IMG/VR virus record: IMGVR_UViG_3300037067_027616
Span: 160,001-224,000 of that record
Length of the DNA: 64,000 bases
Direction: 5' to 3' (one strand)
Source: a virus
Lineage: Duplodnaviria; Caudoviricetes
Made by a program: the position numbers and the translations under genes. Shown in pieces: positions 4,606-56,996 of this stretch (position 1 is the stretch's first letter; every line of letters starts with the position of its first letter). The notes beneath the pieces are model-generated. The model made no database searches. It was not told the DNA's origin and was given only the letters and a program-made list of their open reading frames with translations.

Positions 4606-6396
4606 TCAGACAAGTTCCTCAAAAGGTGGGGCTTTTAACGGAAGACCTTTTTCCCTATCCTCTTGTTTCTTTTTGGTTTTTTGTAAAATTTCAGAGTCAA
4701 CTTTATTCTTCAATATTTTCTCCCAGCCTTTTCTTGAAGCCATCTCGCCAAGTATCTTTCGAGCCTCCGCCGCGCGTTGGCGTTCGTCCATGTTGTCAAA
4801 GTGCCCTTCTAAAAGCTTCTTTTTTAGTATTGCTTTTATTTCCCCAACTACAGGGCCTTTTGTAACTTCTGAAAATTCCGCCATGATTTCATCGCCGGAC
4901 ATGGGATCTATATACCGATACGACCCTCCGGAGGGCGCCAGCAATCCTTTTTTGATGTCATCATCCTTGAGTCTTTTTAAGTCTTGTTTAATTTTGTCGA
5001 TCCTTGATTTTTCAGTATCATCGAGAGCTTGATCAGCCTCGATGACAGCAAGAGCGTCATCAAGGTCATTGAAAACACACTGCAGGAAAGTCCTCAAAAG
5101 CATCGATGATTCTTGGGGCGTTTTCGGATCCTTGGTAAAAGCCATATGCGAATGTATTATTTTGGTAATAGAATCAATATCCTCGTTATCGTACGTAAGT
5201 TCTTTGAGGGCTTTTCTTGCCAAATCTACGCCGTATTCAGCGTGTTCTGCGAAATATACGACGGGCTTTCCTTGTTTGTTGATTGCCTTTTTCTCGGTTA
5301 AAAGCTTGCCGATGTCATGGAACAAAGCTGCAAGTCGTGCTTTTTTGGAACCCGGAGTCTTTTTTATAACATCAAGGGTATGTTCCCACACGTTCTCCCC
5401 ATGATGCCATTTTCTTGATGCATCGTGATATACATCGAGCATTTTAGATAAAGTGGGTGATACAAAATCGAGGACACCCATGTCACGCATAAGATCTAGC
5501 CCTTCTGCTGCGACATTCCCATCAGGGTGTTCGAGTATTTTGTTTAATTCTTCACGGATTCTTTCTGGTTTTACTTTGTCTTTTATGATCTCTTTTCCTT
5601 CTTGAGTCTTTGCGAAACGCTTTATGAATTCCTCCGTACTCGGGTCAAATTCAAAATTAGGAAGTTTTCCTTTGAAGCGAATTATGCGGAAAATTCGCAA
5701 TGGGTCGTCTTTGTATATCTGAACCATGCCCCCTGGATGAGGGGGTGGTTTCAGAATTTTTTTCTTTAGATCTTCAACACCGCCGACGAAATCCTTTATT
5801 TCTCCGGACGCGACGTCTTGGTATATGGCGTTCACAGTTAAGTCGCGCCTTTTTGCATCATCTTCAAGTGTGGTATACTTCACGTAGGAAGGTCCACGTC
5901 CTTTGATATAGGGTCCCTCAAGCCGCGGGGGTGTCATTTCAATGACATACCCTGACACATCGATGCCATCGTAAACGAATGGCTGTTGCTTTTCTCGTGG
6001 CTGGACAAGGGCAAGAGTCCAAATGCCATACTGCTCCTTGAGTACCGCCGGGTTGTTAGGGGTTGTGATCCCCAAAGCATCGCCTAATTTTTTTGTGAAT
6101 ATCTCTGCGGCTTTCATGTCGTCTTCTGGGGAGTCCACGACAAGATCTATATCTTTGGGATTCGTGTTCAACATCTTGTCCCGCACGTATCCACCGACAG
6201 CGTAGACTTTGCCTTTGTATTCGGGGAGAGTAGTCGTGACCATGTCTTTCAGAAGCTTTTCTACAGCCTTCGTTTGTGTCGCCTTATCCTCTTTGGACTT
6301 ACGGATTTCGGTTACCGTATGTGCCGTTTGCTTCTGAAGATATGCCAACACTACTCTTATCGAATCTCCCATAGCATCTTTATCCTTGTTATTCAT
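4606..6396 (-). CDS. cca: CCA-adding tRNA nucleotidyltransferase / poly(A) polymerase family with HD domain
   Basis: VGGYVRD, DID, DAKRRDLTVNA, DDPLRIFR, ERIREEL; VWEHT...LFHDIGK. Confidence 0.9.
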   Translation of the reverse strand: MNNKDKDAMGDSIRVVLAYLQKQTAHTVTEIRKSKEDKATQTKAVEKLLKDMVTTTLPEYKGKVYAVGGYVRDKMLNTNPKDIDLVVDSPEDDMKAAEIFTKKLGDALGITTPNNPAVLKEQYGIWTLALVQPREKQQPFVYDGIDVSGYVIEMTPPRLEGPYIKGRGPSYVKYTTLEDDAKRRDLTVNAIYQDVASGEIKDFVGGVEDLKKKILKPPPHPGGMVQIYKDDPLRIFRIIRFKGKLPNFEFDPSTEEFIKRFAKTQEGKEIIKDKVKPERIREELNKILEHPDGNVAAEGLDLMRDMGVLDFVSPTLSKMLDVYHDASRKWHHGENVWEHTLDVIKKTPGSKKARLAALFHDIGKLLTEKKAINKQGKPVVYFAEHAEYGVDLARKALKELTYDNEDIDSITKIIHSHMAFTKDPKTPQESSMLLRTFLQCVFNDLDDALAVIEADQALDDTEKSRIDKIKQDLKRLKDDDIKKGLLAPSGGSYRYIDPMSGDEIMAEFSEVTKGPVVGEIKAILKKKLLEGHFDNMDERQRAAEARKILGEMASRKGWEKILKNKVDSEILQKTKKKQEDREKGLPLKAPPFEELV

Positions 6397-8536: not shown

Positions 8537-9445
8537 TCAGAAAGGTCTATCATCAAGTTGCAGAACGACTAAATTAAGGTCACGCCAATTTGCACAGACC
8601 GATGGACGGTCATCCACCACGTAGCGAACGTCATATTTCCCGGCAACGTTGGCCTCGTACAGTTCACGTTTGACAGTGGTATCCGGCCTTGAATCCCCCG
8701 TAACGCGCATGAAAAAAGGTCCATCAGACGGCAACCCGGCTACATCGGAGAGCCATTGGCACGTGCCTGTGCGCCACTTGTCTTCCCTACCGGACATGAA
8801 AATAAGAGCATGCCCGGCATCCATAAGTAGTTTGACCAAAGTTACAACGTGCGCGAACGGGACATCCTCCATCAATCGGGATCCATCATAGGGGTTCCTG
8901 ATGCCCCGAGACAAGGCCAGCGTCCCATCGATGTCCACAATGATAGCCTTTGGAAGGCCTGGGATGTCCACAGGCGCCGAGTATGGCTCGATGGGGTAGT
9001 ATTGAGTCCGGCATTCGATGTGCTTTCCTTTCACATGCTTGCGGTGCATATCACGGATTATCTGCTCCGGCACGCGCTCGGACTCGGGTCGACCCTCATT
9101 ACGACGTATGGCTTCGTTCAAGTCTACATCAAAATACTTCTCGACTACCATGACATCGCCCACGCGTTTGGCGATGCGACACATGCTGTCCCAATGTTTA
9201 TCGGAGAAGTTAGTGTCATCCACGATGACATCGAAATCTCGGAGTAGCGACCTTTGGACGGCGTAATCCCGGATGTCGAGCATGAACCGTTCTTGCGCCG
9301 GGGACCAAGCCTCCCCATCAAGCATGGCGCGGAGGAGATCCTTGTTGACGCGCTTGAACCTTTTAGGGCTCCTACGCATCTCCTCTTTCGTCCACGTACT
9401 TTTTCCACTGGCTGGAATTCCTTTAGTCATTATGATGGTTCGCAT
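8537..9445 (-). CDS. pseT: T4 PseT-like polynucleotide 5'-kinase/3'-phosphatase
   Basis: GIPASGKST P-loop, VIVDDTN, IIVDIDGTL, VDDRPSV; start taken at MRTIIMT. Confidence 0.9.
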   Translation of the reverse strand: MRTIIMTKGIPASGKSTWTKEEMRRSPKRFKRVNKDLLRAMLDGEAWSPAQERFMLDIRDYAVQRSLLRDFDVIVDDTNFSDKHWDSMCRIAKRVGDVMVVEKYFDVDLNEAIRRNEGRPESERVPEQIIRDMHRKHVKGKHIECRTQYYPIEPYSAPVDIPGLPKAIIVDIDGTLALSRGIRNPYDGSRLMEDVPFAHVVTLVKLLMDAGHALIFMSGREDKWRTGTCQWLSDVAGLPSDGPFFMRVTGDSRPDTTVKRELYEANVAGKYDVRYVVDDRPSVCANWRDLNLVVLQLDDRPF

Positions 9446-10470
9446 GCTTGACCCCTTGCCAAACCGTTTGGCTTTACAGGTTTGCTTAACCAATGTTCAT
9501 CGGTTTGTACGTGGTTCTTTCTAACTAGTTTTGCCGTACTCCTTGAAAACGCCTCATATCTGAAATCAGAGGCAAGTCTTACCACGTATCCTTCAACAGG
9601 GTCGGGGCTGGCGGCACAATATTTCTCAAAGGATCTATCTACGAACTCCCTCCCCCATACTTCATGATAGAACACGGGTACTGTTTGAAGCCCTAGCAAT
9701 TTAGAATAGGTGGCTGTATCGTGCCAAGAAAGGCACCTGTTAAGGTCATCCCATATCGAGTAAACGAGAAAAAAAGAGGGGAGATTTTTGTAGGCTATGC
9801 TGTGTTCGGCATACAGGTTCTCCCCACAAACACGCCATTTTTTTGGGATATCATGTTTGATTGACCCGTGAAGGGCATGTACCCAATCGCGGCTTGGGTG
9901 CGGTCCGGAGTTTACCGATCGTGCAAATACCTTTTCTTGAGTCATCGTGGTACACTCACCGTCCATCTTCACCGTAGCCACCACTTCCTTGCCGTCAAAC
10001 AAGTTGTCGTCTTTATGCATCCTGTCATCGTTTTGGACATTTGGGGAATACGAAAAATGATACGTGCGGGGGTATTTGATGTTCCATGTGAATGAATCAA
10101 GCACTCCACCATCTTTCAAAGCTATCCGGACGCTGTCCTTCAAGAACAAGGGTCCTGGATAGCGGACGCCTGTAGGTTCCACCACATTTCCCCAGTGGTC
10201 GTATTCGTTCTCCTCATCGAAACCAGGAGGACATACACGTGACTTGATACCCGCTTTTTCCCGGAGCACGGAACACGGAATAACAGTCCGTTCTGCATCG
10301 AGGTGACAACGTTCGCACAAAGTTACTCCGTTTTCGGTGTAATACCCACCATCGGGCCACAAGCTTCTATCCATCAAGTGGTGCACGGCCGTACCGCGCG
10401 CCGGACACCCCACGCAGAGTCCCTGGTCGCGTTTCCTCACAGCTATGTTGAATTCATCCCTTGTTGGCAT
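9430..10470 (-). CDS. HNH domain fused to ATP-dependent RNA ligase
   Basis: N-terminal RD..CVGC...HH...N..TLC..CH; KYPRTYH, KMDGE, CGENLYA, EGYVVR. Confidence 0.8.
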   Translation of the reverse strand: MPTRDEFNIAVRKRDQGLCVGCPARGTAVHHLMDRSLWPDGGYYTENGVTLCERCHLDAERTVIPCSVLREKAGIKSRVCPPGFDEENEYDHWGNVVEPTGVRYPGPLFLKDSVRIALKDGGVLDSFTWNIKYPRTYHFSYSPNVQNDDRMHKDDNLFDGKEVVATVKMDGECTTMTQEKVFARSVNSGPHPSRDWVHALHGSIKHDIPKKWRVCGENLYAEHSIAYKNLPSFFLVYSIWDDLNRCLSWHDTATYSKLLGLQTVPVFYHEVWGREFVDRSFEKYCAASPDPVEGYVVRLASDFRYEAFSRSTAKLVRKNHVQTDEHWLSKPVKPNGLARGQACEPS

Positions 10471-15765: not shown

Positions 15766-15841
15766 TGGAGCCGATGAAGGGACTCAAACCCCCGACCCCC
15801 GCATTACAGGTGCGGTGCTCTATCAGCTGAGCTACATCGGC
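15766..15841 (-). tRNA. tRNA-Thr(TGT)
   Basis: Loop CC-TGT-AA (C33), T loop TTTGAGT, CCA. Confidence 0.88.
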
Positions 15842-21873: not shown

Positions 21874-22020
21874 ACATTGATAATATACTATCAAAAACAT
21901 TGAAATGGACTGCGGTCTCCGGTTCGCCTATGGGAGCCACCTGTGCTTGATAACGGGAGAGGTGGGCGCCCACGTCACCGCCATTCCGGTTCACACGATA
22001 CCCGCAGTCCATTTTTGTTT

Positions 22021-22099: not shown

Positions 22100-22176
22100 T
22101 GGTGGGCGACAGAGGGCTCGAACCTCTGATCTCCGCGATGTGGACGCGGCGCCTTAGCCGACTGGGCCAGTCGCCC
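22100..22176 (-). tRNA. tRNA-Val(CAC)
   Basis: Loop TC-CAC-AT (C33), CCA. Confidence 0.88.
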
Positions 22177-22186
22177 CTGAAGATTG

Positions 22187-22275
22187 TGGTGGGAGGTGAT
22201 GGAGTCGAACCACCCGAGCCCGTTAAAGGCAACAGCTCTACAGGCTGTCCCGCTACCCCTACGGTATAACCTCCC
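22187..22275 (-). tRNA. tRNA-Tyr(GTA)
   Basis: Loop CT-GTA-GA, long variable arm, CCA. Confidence 0.92.
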
Positions 22276-22286
22276 ATAAATAAAAA

Positions 22287-22492
22287 GGGGACACTCCCGT
22301 AATTGGACTTCTGTTCTATGGCCACATTTGACTGAGCCCGAGACCCGTCCATTGTAGCCCTGCTCACCGGCTAGGACTGTTTTCGGTTGCTACCGAGGAA
22401 GTGCGGGCGACCTTGCGATCTCCTTCCACGAGCAGTGTAGGTCCAATTTCCTCACCGGACTGACGTCCGGCGCGTGACCTCGGAGTGTCCCC
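22287..22492 (-). ncRNA. rnpB: Minimal RNase P RNA-like gene (~206 nt)
   Basis: P1 GGGGACACTCC/GGAGTGTCCCC; P2 GGTCAC/GTGGCC; GAGGAAATTGGAC and AGAACAGAAGTCCAATTAC form the P4 pseudoknot; GAGCAG. Confidence 0.8.
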
Positions 22493-22497
22493 GGGAT

Positions 22498-22583
22498 TGG
22501 TGCTCAAGGAGAGACTTGAACTCTCACGAAGTTTCCCTCGGTGGGTTTTGAGTCCACTGGGTCTGCCATTCCCCCACTTGAGC
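22498..22583 (-). tRNA. tRNA-Leu(CAA)
   Basis: Loop CT-CAA-AA, CCA. Confidence 0.92.
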
Positions 22584-22627
22584 ATGTTCATAATTTCACG
22601 AATGTTCACGTAAACGTGAACAAAAAT

Positions 22628-22711
22628 TGGTGCGGCTGACTGGATTTGAACCAGCAAGGCGTTTGCCATAACGTTCTTAGCGTTACGTGTATGCCATTCC
22701 ACCACAGCCGC
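22628..22711 (-). tRNA. tRNA-Leu(AAG)
   Basis: Loop CT-AAG-AA, Leu-type D arm and variable arm, CCA. Confidence 0.88.
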
Positions 22712-22718
22712 ATATTTA

Positions 22719-22874
22719 TAAGATCCGCGTCCGAGTCGATGGGGCGTCTTCTTTCGAAGACTGATTAACCATCAGTTGCTCCACCCTGGAGCATACTCCC
22801 CATAAGTGGGGAGTCGTGGGATCGAACCACGCATACACGGAATGTACGCCCTCTCATGGAGGACGCGGATCTTA
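22719..22874 (-). ncRNA. Circularly permuted tRNA-like RNA 1 (YrlA/Y-RNA-like), GTT loop
   Basis: Order is T arm, acceptor 3' strand, short linker, acceptor 5' strand, D arm, anticodon arm, inside a long terminal stem. Confidence 0.8.
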
Positions 22875-22882
22875 ATTTCAGT

Positions 22883-23042
22883 AGGACACCGTCCGAGTCG
22901 ATGGAGCGTCATCGTCAGATGATGGTTTAGAGACCATTGCGTTTACCATTTCGCCATCCCGGCATTGGTGCCGGGGCCAGGATTTGAACCTGGAGTTGCC
23001 TTTCGGCTTAAATGTACGCTTCGTCCTGGAGGACGGTGTCCT
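22883..23042 (-). ncRNA. Circularly permuted tRNA-like RNA 2 (Leu-like body, CTCTAA loop)
   Basis: CCAGG-TTCAAAT-CCTGG-CCCCGGC-ACCA-AT-GCCGGGATGGCGAAATGGTAAACGC; same conserved flanks as units 1 and 3. Confidence 0.8.
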
Positions 23043-23048
23043 TTTTCT

Positions 23049-23134
23049 TGGTGCGGATGAAAGGATTTGAACCTTCATGGGTGTTAGCCCACTAGCGCCT
23101 GAAACTAGCGTGTCTGCCTTTCCACCACATCCGC
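23049..23134 (-). tRNA. tRNA-Leu(CAG)
   Basis: Loop TT-CAG-GC, CCA. Confidence 0.92.
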
Positions 23135-23144
23135 GCATCTTAAT

Positions 23145-23293
23145 GGGATCCCCGCCTGAGTCGACGGAGCAAGTGACGCATTTTGACTGTTTTACTGACA
23201 GTTGCCTTACCATTTGGCTATTCCCCCATATAAGGGGGAATCAGGAGTTGAACCTGAAGAGTGTATGCTTTCATCATGGAAGGCGAGGATCCC
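23145..23293 (-). ncRNA. Circularly permuted tRNA-like RNA 3 (GTA loop)
   Basis: TCAGG-TTCAACT-CCTGA-TTCCCCC-ttatat-GGGGGAATAGCCAAATGGTAAGGCA-ACTGT-CAGTAAA-ACAGT; conserved flanks. Confidence 0.8.
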
Positions 23294-23302
23294 TAACTTG
23301 TT

Positions 23303-23380
23303 TGGGGTGACCGGCGAGACTCGAACTCGTAACCGCTGGATTCACAATCCAGTGCTCTGACCAATTGAGCTACGGCCACC
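23303..23380 (-). tRNA. tRNA-His(GTG)
   Basis: G-1:C73, loop TT-GTG-AA, CCA. Confidence 0.93.
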
Positions 23381-23392
23381 ATAATTCTCCTT

Positions 23393-23466
23393 TGGAGCTG
23401 GCGCCCAGATTTGAACTGAGGATGAAGGTTTTGCGGACCTTTGCCTTTCCACTTGGCTACGCCAGC
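23393..23466 (-). tRNA. tRNA-Cys(GCA)
   Basis: Loop CC-GCA-AA (C33), U73, CCA. Confidence 0.9.
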
Positions 23467-23624
23467 ATAAGGTAACAAGGAGGAGGGAACGGGCCGGGGA
23501 GCACCGCCCCCACCCCTTGATGCTATTGACATGACTGCGTCCCGCATCAGCGGGCGCATTCATCATGTGCTTCATGCAAACAATCCGTATTTTCAATGAA
23601 CCAGAAACCACAAACAACTCCGTA

Positions 23625-23671
23625 AAAACTTAAAGGCCCCCGTCCGAATCTCTCCGGGCGGGGGCCTTCTG
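23625..23671 (-). terminator. Attenuator terminator of tRNA block 1
   Basis: AAGGCCCCCGCCCGGA-gaga-TTCGGACGGGGGCCTTT followed by AAGTTTTT. Confidence 0.85.
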
Positions 23672-23690
23672 GTTTTCGCTATGGGCTTGT

Positions 23691-23813
23691 TCAGCCCTTC
23701 AGAAGTCCCCCGCCGTAACTATCCCACGTGAGGTGCAAATACGACAGTCGGCATGCGGCTATCGCTTGCACGTTTGTGGATGATCCGGTTAGTAAGGACT
23801 CTCTGCGTTTCAT
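23691..23813 (-). CDS. Leader peptide 1 (MKRRESLLTGSSTNVQAIAACRLSYLHLTWDSYGGGLLKG)
   Basis: AGGAG SD; lies between promoter and terminator; 3' end holds the antiterminator strand; contains the exact codon for all 20 downstream tRNAs. Confidence 0.88.
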   Translation of the reverse strand: MKRRESLLTGSSTNVQAIAACRLSYLHLTWDSYGGGLLKG

Positions 23814-26180: not shown

Positions 26181-26269
26181 TGGTAGGTCCGGGTGGAATT
26201 GAACCACCGTTTACCTTTCGGCCCCTTGCGTATCAGACAAGTGCTCTAACCGGGCTGAGCTACGGACCT
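26181..26269 (-). tRNA. tRNA-Ile(GAT) with an unusual long variable arm
   Basis: Loop CT-GAT-AC; GCC-GAAA-GGT extra arm; CCA. Confidence 0.85.
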
Positions 26270-26276
26270 GCATATA

Positions 26277-26369
26277 TGGTAGCGGGGGCAAGATTCGAAC
26301 TTGCGACCTCCGTTAGGAAGTTCTGGCTTATGAGGCCAGTGACTTAGACCTGCTCTAGTCTACCCCGCA
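26277..26369 (-). tRNA. tRNA-Met(CAT), initiator-like acceptor, long variable arm
   Basis: T1:T72 mismatch, GCGGGG stem, loop CT-CAT-AA, CCA. Confidence 0.82.
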
Positions 26370-28359: not shown

Positions 28360-28436
28360 TGGTGGTCCCGAACGGATTTGAACCGCTGACGCCCAGGTCT
28401 TCGGCCTGGCGCTCTACCGGGCTGAGCTACAGGACC
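28360..28436 (-). tRNA. tRNA-Phe(GAA)
   Basis: Loop CC-GAA-GA (C33), CCA. Confidence 0.9.
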
Positions 28437-28516
28437 ACGATATAACACGTGGCCCTTGTAGCCACGTGTTTATGTAGAGTCTGTAAATCGATCTTCCATC
28501 TCATATCTCCTAAACG

Positions 28517-28553
28517 AAAAAACCCCACCGATCCTTTTGGGCCCGGTGGGGTT
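28517..28553 (-). terminator. Attenuator terminator of tRNA block 2
   Basis: AACCCCACCGG...TCGGTGGGG followed by TTTTTT. Confidence 0.88.
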
Positions 28554-28578
28554 CAGAATGCTAACGAGTCCACCGGGC

Positions 28579-28650
28579 TTACATGGCAATATCCATGCTA
28601 TCAAAGTCGATAGCGCTGAAGATAATGCTGATGCCGATGGTAGTACGCAT
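28579..28650 (-). CDS. Leader peptide 2 (MRTTIGISIIFSAIDFDSMDIAM)
   Basis: AAGGAG upstream; rich in ATC/AGC/TTC/GAC/ATG; antiterminator directly follows the TAA. Confidence 0.88.
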   Translation of the reverse strand: MRTTIGISIIFSAIDFDSMDIAM

Positions 28651-28683
28651 TGAAAGTATTGCTCCTTTTACGACGTTGGGCAT

Positions 28684-28712
28684 AATATACCACGGATTTA
28701 GAAGATTGTCAA
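28684..28712 (-). promoter_or_regulatory. Promoter of tRNA block 2
   Basis: TTGACA-17-TATATT with extended TG. Confidence 0.88.
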
Positions 28713-28725
28713 TAGGAATCTTATA

Positions 28726-29148
28726 TTAAGTGATCCCTGCGAGTATCTTGCCCCTCAACATGCCCTTCAAAAGGTCAACTTCACCTTCCGACTTATCCAT
28801 TGCCCTCAACCATCCAGTGACATCTTCGAGGATTAAGTCTGTTGTAGCTTCCGCCTCTATTTTATCAATGTTGTAGTCGGGATGAGCCTTCATCGCCTGA
28901 TCATAGGCCCTCTTGCCTTGGGCGCTGTCTACATACTCTTGATAGAGTTTATTCACATACTGTTGACTTTTATTCTTAAGATAGTCTGCGGTAATGAACC
29001 CTTGCGCGGTCACGGATTGGTCAATAGTATTGCTTACCACATCCAAATCATGAGCCTCTTTGATCATACCGAGGGATTCAAGATGGGAAGCTATTTTGTC
29101 GAGTTTCTTTGCGATGTCTTTCATAGGGTCATCAAAAATGATATTCAT
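28726..29148 (-). CDS. Repeat-motif protein
   Basis: LDKIASHLESLGMIKEAHDLDVVSNTID. Confidence 0.7.
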   Translation of the reverse strand: MNIIFDDPMKDIAKKLDKIASHLESLGMIKEAHDLDVVSNTIDQSVTAQGFITADYLKNKSQQYVNKLYQEYVDSAQGKRAYDQAMKAHPDYNIDKIEAEATTDLILEDVTGWLRAMDKSEGEVDLLKGMLRGKILAGIT

Positions 29149-35860: not shown

Positions 35861-35937
35861 TGGTGCGCCCGGTGGGATTTTAACCCACGACCATCGGTTT
35901 TAGAGACCGTCGGCTCTACACGCTGAGCTACGGGCGC
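35861..35937 (-). tRNA. Amber suppressor tRNA (CTA anticodon)
   Basis: GCGCCCG acceptor, GCTC/GAGC D stem, CGGT-CTCTAAA-ACCG, T loop TTAAAAT, CCA. Confidence 0.82.
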
Positions 35938-39686: not shown

Positions 39687-39777
39687 TGGCTGGCACGGAG
39701 AGATTTGAACTCCCGATGGGCTTTCGCCACGGCGGATTAACAGTCCGCTGCCTTAGACCAAACTAGGCTACGTGCCA
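39687..39777 (-). tRNA. tRNA-Asn(GTT) with a long variable arm
   Basis: Loop CT-GTT-AA; GGC-GAAA-GCC extra arm; CCA. Confidence 0.87.
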
Positions 39778-54734: not shown

Positions 54735-56996
54735 TCACACCTTACTTGAGTGATAGTCTGTAATCACTTGATATATAACATCTTCCACATATTCACGATC
54801 TGGAGAGTGGGGCAATTTTGATGCCTTGTACAACTCTCCGAGTTGCTTGTCCATATCGTGTGCGTATTGCTCCACTTTGTCGTAAGACCATGCGCCATCG
54901 CGTATGGACTTCAGTTCTTCAGCATCAATGTTCGTACGGTCGACGTTCACTTTTCCTGCTTCAAGTATCTCCGCTCCCATGCGGCAAAGTCTGACAAGAT
55001 GCATAGCGTGCTTGCTGTTACCGTGGAAAGCGACATGTCCATTCCTGCGGGTGACCAACACACCATTTGGTACGGAAAAGCACACTATATTCTGGCCAAC
55101 CACCGGTATTTTTCTTACTGCACAGCGCCTCATAATCCTGTGATGTTTTTGGGAATTTTTGTCGATGTGCACATGGAACATTTTTGCCTTTGGGTAATGC
55201 TCATTGTCGCTGTCGTACGGGCCATACAAGGATGTTTCCCAACCACAAGTAACCGCCAATTCTTGCACATCATCGGCAAGACTTTTCACGGAAGTGTAGT
55301 AAATCACCGACTTTTTGGACGTGTTCCTAATGGTACCATCCCCGAGTACCATAGCGTCAAAAAGAATTTCTTTTTCGTGCTTTGATAGTCCAAAAACCCA
55401 CCGCGGTATCTTTTTTGTTGTTTTCTCGCCACAATCGGAAAGAAACCTTTGCGCCAACTCTTTCCCGTACACAATGAGAACTATTTCTTGGATCGAAGTA
55501 GAGCGAAATAGGTTGGGACCGCGTTCATAAGAATAGAGTCCTGTAGGGGCTTCCGTGCTACCGTGAAATCTGGACATGTGCCAATGAAGCCTACCACCGG
55601 ACTTCTGGCTGATGCGTACGTTTTTGGGATTGCTTTTACATTTTCCCAGGCACCCATCAGACAAGTACCACCCCATCAACGACAAGTATTGCCTGCGCGT
55701 GAGTTTTACATCGGGAAAATTGTTGATTGTACCATATGTTTTTGTTGCTGGGTCAATGGTGGCTAGAACCTCAAAACATTCTGGTAAACAAGAAATTTCC
55801 TCAAGTACAAAATCTGAAGAGATTCTATTTTTTCTTGACACAGGCTTGAACAGCATTCGGTGATTTGGTGTCACCCGCACATCTATGTGGTTACCGGTGA
55901 GCTGGTACATAGATCCGGTGAAAGTCCCTTCAAATCTATCTACAAAATGTTGATATTCTAATTGACCTCTACGACCGGATTCTTTATACCGACCCGGTTT
56001 ACCTGTAAGGCGTTTTGACTGGAAAAGGTACTTTTTATGAAGTATCCCCCTCACTGTGGCAAGTCGATCTTCGATTGACACGTCCCTATATTTCTTCCAA
56101 CCAGAATCTGTCAAAAACTCGGTGTCGTCCGCATAACAATCAAACCCGAACTTTTCCTCCAAAGCTGCCCGTTTCTTGTTTCTTGATTTTGACCAATTTT
56201 GGTACTGTTCCCACTCCGTCTTTTTGTTGAGATAAACGACCTCTTTGCTGGCCATGTCGTAGTACTCTTCTTTGAGGTACTTCGTACCTAAAGCTTGAAA
56301 AGCATGTGCTTGTGCGGAAATTCCCATCTGGAGCCACTCCAAGGACAACTTGCGTTGATCCGGGTCGAGGAACCGTGCAAACAAAGGAATAACCCAATCA
56401 CCGTAGATTTGGTCGAGTTCAACCAAAAAGTCATGTCGGAGATCCTCCGGGATAGCCTCAATGGCCGCGTAGCACACGGCTTTGAGTTGAGAAGTCGGAA
56501 ACAAGGACTGCTCTGGAAGGCCCATTTCCGTCCGTGTAGGGAAGGATTTTGGGGGGTCAAGCAAAAACTTCCTGTGAACTTTTATCCTGTTAAGTTGTGC
56601 GATAGCGTACCCCGAGAATGTGTATCGGCATTTCTTTGATAGAAATTTTTCACGGGATAACAAAATTCTCTCCCACCACGGGCTTGTTTTCTTTATGCAC
56701 CTATCCGGCGCCCACAGTAAATCGAGCATGTTTGGGTTGTTTTCAAGTAGCAATGACGTAGCTTTGTGGATAGCATAGATTTTTCTGTCCACGCCCCCAA
56801 AGTCAGAGAACTCCTCAACATTTTTGAAACCCAAAAAATACTCTGGCCCAGGGATCATCACACCTGTCCTATCCTCATCAGATTCGGGTGTATTTGTACC
56901 GTAGGCCTGCGAACCCGTAACGGTTTCAAATATGGTGTGATTCAACGCGTATTGCTGTTCCATGTTTTTCCCTCCAGAGGAAATATACCATTTCAC
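54735..56996 (-). CDS. Pol-beta-superfamily (YcgL/RlaP-like) nucleotidyltransferase containing an intein
   Basis: GSQAYGT....SDED..GV, NPN.LD.L, GFD|intein|SKHAMHLVRL. Confidence 0.85.
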   Translation of the reverse strand: MKWYISSGGKNMEQQYALNHTIFETVTGSQAYGTNTPESDEDRTGVMIPGPEYFLGFKNVEEFSDFGGVDRKIYAIHKATSLLLENNPNMLDLLWAPDRCIKKTSPWWERILLSREKFLSKKCRYTFSGYAIAQLNRIKVHRKFLLDPPKSFPTRTEMGLPEQSLFPTSQLKAVCYAAIEAIPEDLRHDFLVELDQIYGDWVIPLFARFLDPDQRKLSLEWLQMGISAQAHAFQALGTKYLKEEYYDMASKEVVYLNKKTEWEQYQNWSKSRNKKRAALEEKFGFDCYADDTEFLTDSGWKKYRDVSIEDRLATVRGILHKKYLFQSKRLTGKPGRYKESGRRGQLEYQHFVDRFEGTFTGSMYQLTGNHIDVRVTPNHRMLFKPVSRKNRISSDFVLEEISCLPECFEVLATIDPATKTYGTINNFPDVKLTRRQYLSLMGWYLSDGCLGKCKSNPKNVRISQKSGGRLHWHMSRFHGSTEAPTGLYSYERGPNLFRSTSIQEIVLIVYGKELAQRFLSDCGEKTTKKIPRWVFGLSKHEKEILFDAMVLGDGTIRNTSKKSVIYYTSVKSLADDVQELAVTCGWETSLYGPYDSDNEHYPKAKMFHVHIDKNSQKHHRIMRRCAVRKIPVVGQNIVCFSVPNGVLVTRRNGHVAFHGNSKHAMHLVRLCRMGAEILEAGKVNVDRTNIDAEELKSIRDGAWSYDKVEQYAHDMDKQLGELYKASKLPHSPDREYVEDVIYQVITDYHSSKV
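55017..56138 (-). mobile_element. Intein with LAGLIDADG homing endonuclease (374 aa, residues 287-660)
   Basis: CYADDTEFLT..GW, VTPNHRML, GWYLSDG, AMVLGDG, VTRRNG...HGN followed by Ser. Confidence 0.92.

Follow-up and report, generated by a model that had tools for sequence, protein, structure and literature searches.

The question raised by this locus is what three RNAs built of tRNA arms in permuted order, and encoded in the tRNA operon of a huge phage, may be: tRNAs, Y RNAs, or something else. The locus lies in a stretch of 64,000 nucleotides (nt), hereafter the window, which corresponds to bases 160,001–224,000 of a 466,729-bp phage record of IMG/VR (IMGVR_UViG_3300037067_027616). The three RNAs (units A, B and C) are 149–163 nt long and are all encoded on the minus strand. 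On the evidence presented below, they seem to be neither tRNAs nor classical Y RNAs, but tRNA mimics of a new, non-decoding kind.

Architecture of the three units

The units are listed here with their scores against R1, the covariance model built from the three of them. When R1 was run against the whole phage genome, high scores were obtained at the three units only.

22719–22875, minus strand: unit A (A-like), permuted tRNA-like RNA; anticodon loop UGGUUAA (G33), acceptor loop ACUUAU; 171 bits
22883–23045, minus strand: unit B (B-like), permuted RNA, apparently derived from tRNA-Leu(UAG); 6-nt anticodon loop CUCUAA, acceptor loop ACCAAU; 146.7 bits
23145–23293, minus strand: unit C (C-like), permuted tRNA-like RNA; anticodon loop CAGUAAA (A33), acceptor loop UUAUAU; 150.7 bits

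Read from 5′ to 3′, each unit starts with one strand of a 12–13-bp terminal stem (P1), followed by the motif UCCAKGA, the 5′ strand of a second helix (P2) running into GCRUACA, a linker, the T arm and a closed acceptor hairpin. After this hairpin come a GG-containing D arm, an anticodon stem of 5 bp, the 3′ strand of P2, the motif CCRUCGACUC and the 3′ strand of P1. An extra GNRA-type hairpin is present 3′ of the anticodon stem in units A and B, and the D arm of unit C closely resembles tRNA-Cys. The minimum free energy (MFE) folds yielded this full architecture unaided (-81, -68 and -60 kcal/mol) and reproduced the order of parts given by an earlier sequence-only reading, which had placed three permuted tRNA-like RNAs here with the break in the variable region; the scaffold motifs and the three anticodon loops that it reported are exact. 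The parts are located as follows.

22861–22873 with 22720–22732 (unit A, 13 bp), 23031–23042 with 22883–22894 (unit B), 23281–23293 with 23145–23157 (unit C), minus strand: P1, 5′ strand with 3′ strand
22857–22860 (A), 23027–23030 (B), 23277–23280 (C), minus strand: UCCA, 5′ half of a 4×4 internal loop
22733–22736 (A), 22895–22898 (B), 23158–23161 (C), minus strand: ACUC, 3′ half of the internal loop, followed by the G of the C-G closing pair
22843–22851 with 22742–22747 (A), minus strand: P2, with the 5′ strand and conserved ACA junction (GGGCGUACA)
23013–23020 with 22905–22909 (B), 23262–23269 with 23168–23171 (C), minus strand: P2, with the 5′ strand and ACA junction
22815–22831 (A), 22977–22993 (B), 23241–23257 (C), minus strand: T arm, canonical GGUUCRA loop
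22795–22814 (A), 22957–22976 (B), 23221–23240 (C), minus strand: acceptor hairpin, 7 bp, closed by a 6-nt loop; RNase P may cut 5′ of G1
22760–22776 (A), 22922–22937 (B), 23186–23202 (C), minus strand: anticodon arm; stem covarying, loop not conserved
22998–23007 (hairpin V) and 22910–22921 (hairpin H), minus strand: GNRA-type hairpins of unit B

Orthologues and covariation

A pattern spanning both scaffold motifs matched five tRNA-array contigs of the JGI metagenome collection (L052, L060, L061, L064 and L065). L052, L060 and L061 are identical, so that three distinct related contigs carry orthologues. The construction of a covariance model from the three copies had been proposed as a check of the sequence-only reading, and R1 does find the orthologues in these three phage contigs, with scores of 113–141 bits (E 1e-28 to 1e-35). 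The other 11 of the 16 metagenome and GTDB loci, including both GTDB matches, were chance matches in coding DNA.

The gene order is kept in the relatives: Cys, His, [C-like], Leu(CAG), [B-like], [A-like], Leu(GAG/AAG), Leu(CAA), RNase P, Tyr, Val, Thr. Across lineages the units show 73–86% nucleotide identity, similar to the adjoining tRNAs, and the flanking proteins are 47–62% identical to those of the window. Further searches for relatives returned no additional carriers. Pattern scans of IMG/VR gave chance matches only (picornavirus-like coding DNA, junctions of adjacent tRNAs, and sequences without a P1 stem); blastn against INPHARED gave nothing relevant, with only weak tRNA-junction matches in the 735-kb phage LR756501; a PcfJ-like protein used to seek relatives yielded zero loci; and a profile of the 150-aa upstream protein retrieved only distant homologues, without tRNAs. 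The spread of the family may be underestimated. No publication on these RNAs was found, which, as literature coverage was incomplete, is weak evidence of novelty.

Comparison of the copies supports the fold throughout. For the three units, RNAalifold detected compensatory change in 21 of 46 pairs. When all 10 distinct sequences were considered, 93.1% of the cells could pair, compared with 35–43% when the partners were slid; 26 of the 42 pairs were changed on both sides, with support in every helix, and the observed covariation score was reached by 0 of 500 shuffles. P1, the terminal stem described as covarying in the sequence-only reading, was 98.4% paired with 9 of 13 pairs compensatory; the T arm (helix 3) was 100% paired, and the acceptor (helix 4) had compensatory changes in 6 of 7 pairs. 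The extent of pairing, together with the compensatory changes in every helix, shows that the structure is real and under selection.

These data bear directly on the idea that the units are functionless, decaying by-products of tandem tRNA duplication. Some decay is indeed seen, both in the encoded CCA and in the anticodon loops (see below), and the A-like unit has been lost in L065, where only the 5′ strand of P1 and UCCAUGA remain, followed by an open reading frame (ORF) for an HNH homing endonuclease (L065:959–1481, minus strand) that recalls SegB of the T4 tRNA cluster. However, helices with compensatory changes throughout and 93% pairing across lineages whose proteins are ~50–60% identical, invariant loop motifs, and three paralogues at fixed syntenic places argue against it, and we regard this explanation as extremely improbable.

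A handle shared with a second locus

A weak R1 match pointed to a second locus, outside the window, at genome positions 411,497–412,074 (plus strand; locus L007:1492–2069). It is an RNA-only operon, in which four tandem RNAs bearing the handle of the units (E4–E7) lie between a promoter and a terminator.

Genome ~411,446–411,480: promoter TTGACA-17-TATATT
E4, plus strand: 24-bp P1; tRNA cargo of ordinary topology, anticodon AUU, 52 bits with the Rfam tRNA model
E7, plus strand: plain hairpin cargo, divergent motifs
E5, plus strand: complete class-I-shaped tRNA cargo, anticodon UAA, short variable loop, encoded ACCA, 59.2 bits
E6, plus strand: tiny plain hairpin cargo
Genome ~412,080–412,110: terminator

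The handle consists of P1, a C-G closing pair, the 4×4 loop UCCA/ACUY, irregular pairs, P2 and GCRUACA. Over 14 scaffolds, the pair that closes P1 is C-G in 13 and the 5′ loop is UCCA in 13, while the 3′ loop reads ACUC in 11 and ACUU in three (ACUY in 14/14). In E5, the last base of the conserved GCGUACA coincides exactly with tRNA position +1. Because the handle occurs on tRNA and hairpin cargo alike, it is the handle, and not the permuted body, that defines the family, and units A–C are its tRNA-mimic subclass. The sequence-only reading had missed that the scaffold extends beyond the three units.

At E ≤ 10, the only Rfam matches at the two loci were tRNAs and a sub-threshold RNase P match; neither YrlA nor skipping-rope nor any other family was found, and none of the self-cleaving ribozymes (hammerhead, twister, twister-sister, pistol, hatchet, hairpin, HDV) was matched. 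Inspection by eye for a k-turn, C/D box, bulge-helix-bulge (BHB), loop A of the hairpin ribozyme, bulged helix of the Ro60 type or 11-nt receptor docking gave no motif that fits every copy. Terminal inverted repeats of the MITE type were ruled out, because P1 covaries rather than being conserved.

The tRNA-like bodies

When the bodies were re-set in normal order, ARAGORN called 8 of 10 as tRNAs, and the elbow nucleotides are kept (D-loop GG and T-loop GGUUCRA). The anticodon loop behaves very differently from the rest. Its majority fraction is the lowest of all regions (0.60, vs 0.81 for the T loop and 0.93–0.96 for the scaffold loops), and the anticodons vary within each group of orthologues: GUU/GUA/GUU in the A-like, UAG/AAG/UAG plus one 6-nt loop in the B-like, and GUA/GUC/AUA in the C-like group. 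The ordinary flanking tRNAs hold their anticodons across the same contigs. U33 is present in one sequence, position 33 being A, G or C in the other nine, and CCA is encoded in 3/10 units vs ~43/47 ordinary tRNAs. The acceptor loops are ACCAAU (twice), ACUCAU (twice), ACUCGU, ACUUAU, AUCAAU, AACAAU and UUAUAU, with G-CCA-UCUCAU in the C-like unit of L052. An unconserved anticodon loop, loss of U33, changing anticodons and a decayed CCA mean that the units are not decoding tRNAs.

As to their origin, the bodies appear, from sequence comparison, to derive from class II-type tRNAs, the B-like ones from tRNA-Leu(UAG); this is less clear for the A- and C-like ones. B-like units have a 3-bp D stem (GCG/CGC), A73, and GAAA-capped hairpins on both sides of the break, one directly 5′ of the T arm and the other directly 3′ of the anticodon arm. 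Their 5′ half is closest to the tRNA-Leu(UAG) of the phage, and the exact Leu loop CUUAGGA occurs in L065. The simplest, and likely, origin is tandem duplication: if a unit spans two adjacent copies of a class II tRNA, starting in the variable arm of the first and finishing in that of the second, its acceptor loop would consist of A73-CCA plus a spacer of 2 nt, and the presence of both variable-arm hairpins in the B-like units would be accounted for. A recent copy of one particular phage tRNA was considered and discarded, as no unit body matches one.

The sequence-only reading had also considered that the units are precursors matured by ligation. In such a scheme, the rod formed by leader and trailer would be cut, the ends would be joined by Pnkp and Rnl into a variable arm, RNase P would open the acceptor, and CCA would be completed, giving decoding class II tRNAs. 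The parts of a cloverleaf are complete, the acceptor loop is ACCAAU in unit B of this phage and in the B-like unit of L052 and contains GCCA in the C-like unit of L052, the B-like unit of L065 has the canonical Leu loop mentioned above, and the phage encodes Pnkp, two Rnl2-type ligases and a CCA-adding enzyme; U33, moreover, is also missing from several ordinary tRNAs of the phage. A similar arrangement is known from the permuted tRNA genes of Cyanidioschyzon merolae and some archaea, where the 3′ half likewise lies upstream of the 5′ half, the acceptor ends are linked by a short insert with remnants of CCA, and the precursor ends form a terminal helix. Those genes, however, mature through a BHB cut and ligation into decoding tRNAs, while the loop of the units is a symmetric 4×4 and not a BHB, and their anticodon loops are defective and unconserved. 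Ligation is further weakened by the varying anticodons of the orthologues, position 33 being other than U in 9/10, the 6-nt loop of unit B, the presence of CCA in 3/10 only and an anticodon loop that is the least conserved region. Neither a BHB nor genes for a splicing endonuclease (PF01974), RtcB or RNase III were found in the phage genome, which does encode ATP-dependent ligases; the anticodons concerned are all already present among the ordinary tRNAs; and the rod also flanks hairpins that are not tRNAs. Maturation into decoding tRNAs is therefore quite unlikely.

It should be noted that C33 occurs in some ordinary tRNAs of this phage, for example Thr(UGU) at 15766–15841 (minus strand; loop CCUGUAA), so that a base other than U at position 33 may be tolerated, or even selected, here. 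In addition, tRNA-Ile(GAU) (26181–26269), tRNA-Met(CAU) (26277–26369) and tRNA-Asn(GUU) (39687–39777), all on the minus strand, are 89–93 nt long and have long variable arms capped by GAAA, i.e. a class II shape that is unusual for such tRNAs. The tRNA-Cys is 74 nt in this phage vs 87–90 nt in the relatives.

Comparison with YrlA and other known RNAs

YrlA is a modular tRNA mimic (PMC4201824; bioRxiv 10.1101/312249), and the units share with it the order T arm, closed acceptor stem-loop, D arm, the preserved elbow, a long terminal stem, and the combination of a conserved stem with a tRNA-like head. As a working comparison YrlA thus stays a strong one, all the more since YrlA of M. smegmatis has a closed acceptor stem of 7 bp as well; RNase P cleaves it there, both in vivo and in vitro, and CCA is added (PMC4201824). 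The assignment of the units to the YrlA/Y RNA family was nevertheless not supported. The Rfam YrlA model RF02553 (gathering score 69 bits) gave no match on the units (22150–23700) at E ≤ 10. The positive control, the YrlA of mycobacteriophage Bxz1 encoded beside a Ro60 gene, was detected at 32.5 bits (E 1.5e-4), itself below the gathering score. Over the whole genome, sub-threshold matches of up to 31.8 bits fell on junctions of adjacent tRNAs only and none in the units; such false positives arise in tRNA arrays because the succession T arm, acceptor 3′ strand, spacer, acceptor 5′ strand, D arm mimics the order of YrlA. Conversely, R1 scored 8.2 bits on the Bxz1 YrlA.

Structurally, YrlA is without an anticodon loop and its strands exit via the anticodon stem toward the Ro60-binding module (bioRxiv 10.1101/312249). 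All 10 sequences of the present family, in contrast, retain a 5-bp anticodon stem with a 6–7-nt loop, and their two ends emerge from the variable region, with the anticodon arm on one side and the T arm on the other; the invariant motif is also a different one (UCCA/ACUY, GCRUACA), and the stem of the units flanks ordinary tRNAs and plain hairpins as well. The absence of Ro60/TROVE from the window, as originally reported, extends to the whole 466,729-bp genome, where PF05731 found nothing even though the positive controls, including gp220 of Bxz1, were detected. Of the features that characterize YrlA, the permuted order and the elbow nucleotides were found; a match to the model, a Ro60/TROVE gene within ~4 kb on the same strand and a missing anticodon loop were not.

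The units might still be true Y RNAs if the rod bound a host Ro60 (Rsr), as divergent YrlA relatives tethering Ro60 to a tRNA-binding effector. The order of modules, the long terminal stem, the tandem copies from one precursor and the tRNA-rich phage would suit such a role, and the sequence GACGAAG, which fits the YrlA consensus GNCGAAN0-1G, is present near the 5′ end of the B-like units. This sequence, however, is confined to the four B-like sequences and is absent from the A-like and C-like ones and from E4–E7. Considering also the failure of RF02553 where Bxz1 YrlA was detected, the low R1 score on the latter, the lack of a TROVE gene in 467 kb, the retained anticodon arm and the position of the termini, we judge this improbable.

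Other small RNAs offer partial parallels. T4 rnaC and rnaD (species 1 and 2) are small stable RNAs of unassigned function in the T4 tRNA cluster, and rnaC ends in a tRNA-like T arm, but they are not permuted, lack a shared scaffold motif and are unrelated in sequence to the units. In two-piece (permuted) tmRNA, processing opens the closed acceptor of a permuted tRNA-like domain and yields two paired pieces; a tag reading frame, however, is lacking in the units, and no tmRNA was called in the window by ARAGORN.

Possible functions

Our preferred explanation, which we hold only tentatively, is that the units are tRNA mimics that do not decode, carried by a common handle for binding or processing, and that they take part in a tRNA-centred conflict between phage and host. 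It builds on observations of the fold and its conservation, of the shared operon, of anticodon loops that evolve unlike those of tRNAs, and of a handle common to several RNAs; stability, the partner and any decoy or adapter role are inferred. The units would be stable RNAs produced from the phage tRNA operon, each with a tRNA-shaped body closed at the acceptor end by the 6-nt loop and joined through the variable region to the rod of leader and trailer. The rod may bind a single partner common to all of them, or may serve as a shared signal for processing and protection, and the tRNA-shaped head would be the part shown to tRNA-binding factors. In the manner of Y RNAs or decoys, the units could engage or titrate enzymes that recognize tRNA, candidate targets being host nucleases that cut the anticodon or the acceptor, RNase P, and enzymes of tRNA modification or repair, while the closed acceptor and the defective anticodon loop would bar them from translation.

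Several points weigh against this explanation. Ro60/TROVE was not found in the 466,729-bp phage genome; and a pure decoy would not need an invariant rod. Furthermore, the replacement of the A-like unit in L065 implies that at least this unit is dispensable, and, with four related lineages known, comparative power is limited.

The main known cases of non-coding RNAs that mimic tRNA are YrlA with Ro60, tmRNA and the 3′ ends of viruses. The units differ in having all four tRNA arms and yet being non-decoding, in their apparent origin from permuted class II tRNAs, and in a sequence-invariant handle common to unrelated cargos. If this handle recruits a defined partner or the mini RNase P described next, it would represent a new way for huge phages to process, stabilize or deploy small RNAs in the contest over cleavage and repair of host tRNAs; it would also be a compact natural scaffold for RNA display.

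A different role for the handle is suggested by a neighbour in the same operon:

22288–22491, minus strand: mini RNase P RNA, ~204 nt; 54.8 bits with RNaseP_arch, below gathering

This RNA lies ~230 nt downstream of the units. Its specificity domain is almost missing, and one of its hairpin loops, which contains GGU, does not vary among the four lineages. It is a candidate processing enzyme for the units. The internal loop of the handle can be read as a mimic of a tRNA acceptor end (G1-C72, U73-C74-C75-A76, with the leader ACUY 5′ of G1), P1 (13–24 bp) acting as the acceptor/T-stem stack. The phage mini RNase P, or the host enzyme, would then cut at ACUY|G and AU|G, excising or splitting the scaffolded RNAs and converting the permuted units into two-piece tRNA-like RNAs held by the rod. 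The near-invariance of the C-G pair (13/14), UCCA (13/14) and ACUY (14/14) fits this proposal, as does the conservation of the mini RNase P RNA, with its GGU loop, in the operon of all relatives. The acceptor loops have U(-1) in 10/10 and A(-2) in 9/10, compared with U(-1) in 25/47 ordinary tRNAs; all units have a 7-bp acceptor stem, for which the cleavage of M. smegmatis YrlA is a precedent (PMC4201824); and GCGUACA of E5 ends at tRNA position +1. There is a likeness, too, to external guide sequences and minimal RNase P substrates, in which a helix is followed by unpaired NCCA opposite a single-stranded leader abutting G+1.

In the units, however, both strands continue and form an internal loop, so that UCCA is internal and not a 3′ end. 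Since the leaders of ordinary tRNAs show no preference for ACUY, RNase P alone does not explain the invariance. Pairing of A73 with U(-1) could close an 8-bp hairpin, which would disfavour canonical cleavage and would explain U(-1) equally well; no complementarity between the motif and the mini RNase P RNA was found by eye; and the tRNA of E4 begins 3 nt earlier relative to the motif. We consider it possible, but unlikely, that the handle marks cassettes addressed to RNase P in this way. The broader proposition that every handle-bearing RNA is a ligand or substrate of the phage's own mini RNase P, in a natural 'external guide sequence' system, appears similarly doubtful; if true, it would mean that a virus can send small RNAs of any kind to an RNase P of its own, to be excised or to undergo regulated maturation into two pieces.

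Genomic context

The window contains 47 tRNA genes (ARAGORN), all on the minus strand and together serving each of the 20 amino acids. The tRNA operon with the units is preceded by a strong sigma-70-like promoter, and no minus-strand promoter or terminator was found inside the block with the three units; that the units and the tRNAs form one transcription unit is supported by this arrangement. Signals and genes relevant to tRNA metabolism, within the window unless otherwise indicated, are the following.

23864–23836, minus strand: sigma-70-like promoter TTGACA-17-TATATT, 11/12 match to consensus
35861–35937, minus strand: tRNA with a CUA anticodon (amber suppressor type)
4606–6396, minus strand: CCA-adding enzyme with an HD domain
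8537–9493, minus strand: T4-like Pnkp
9430–10470, minus strand: Rnl2-type RNA ligase with an N-terminal HNH match
54735–56996, minus strand: RlaP carrying a LAGLIDADG segment (possible intein)
Genome 28,396–28,872: second Rnl2-type ligase
Genome 422,973–423,321, plus strand: one-piece tmRNA, tag AEDYSYAMAEAA

The presence of Pnkp, an Rnl2-type ligase, a CCA-adding enzyme and RlaP in one window fits pressure from defences that target tRNA (reviewed in PMC7824862).

The operon of the units also encodes an unassigned RNA of ~110 nt (21903–22014, minus strand), which has a 13-bp terminal stem without the UCCA/ACUC handle and folds at -51 kcal/mol over a 147-nt stretch that includes flanking sequence.

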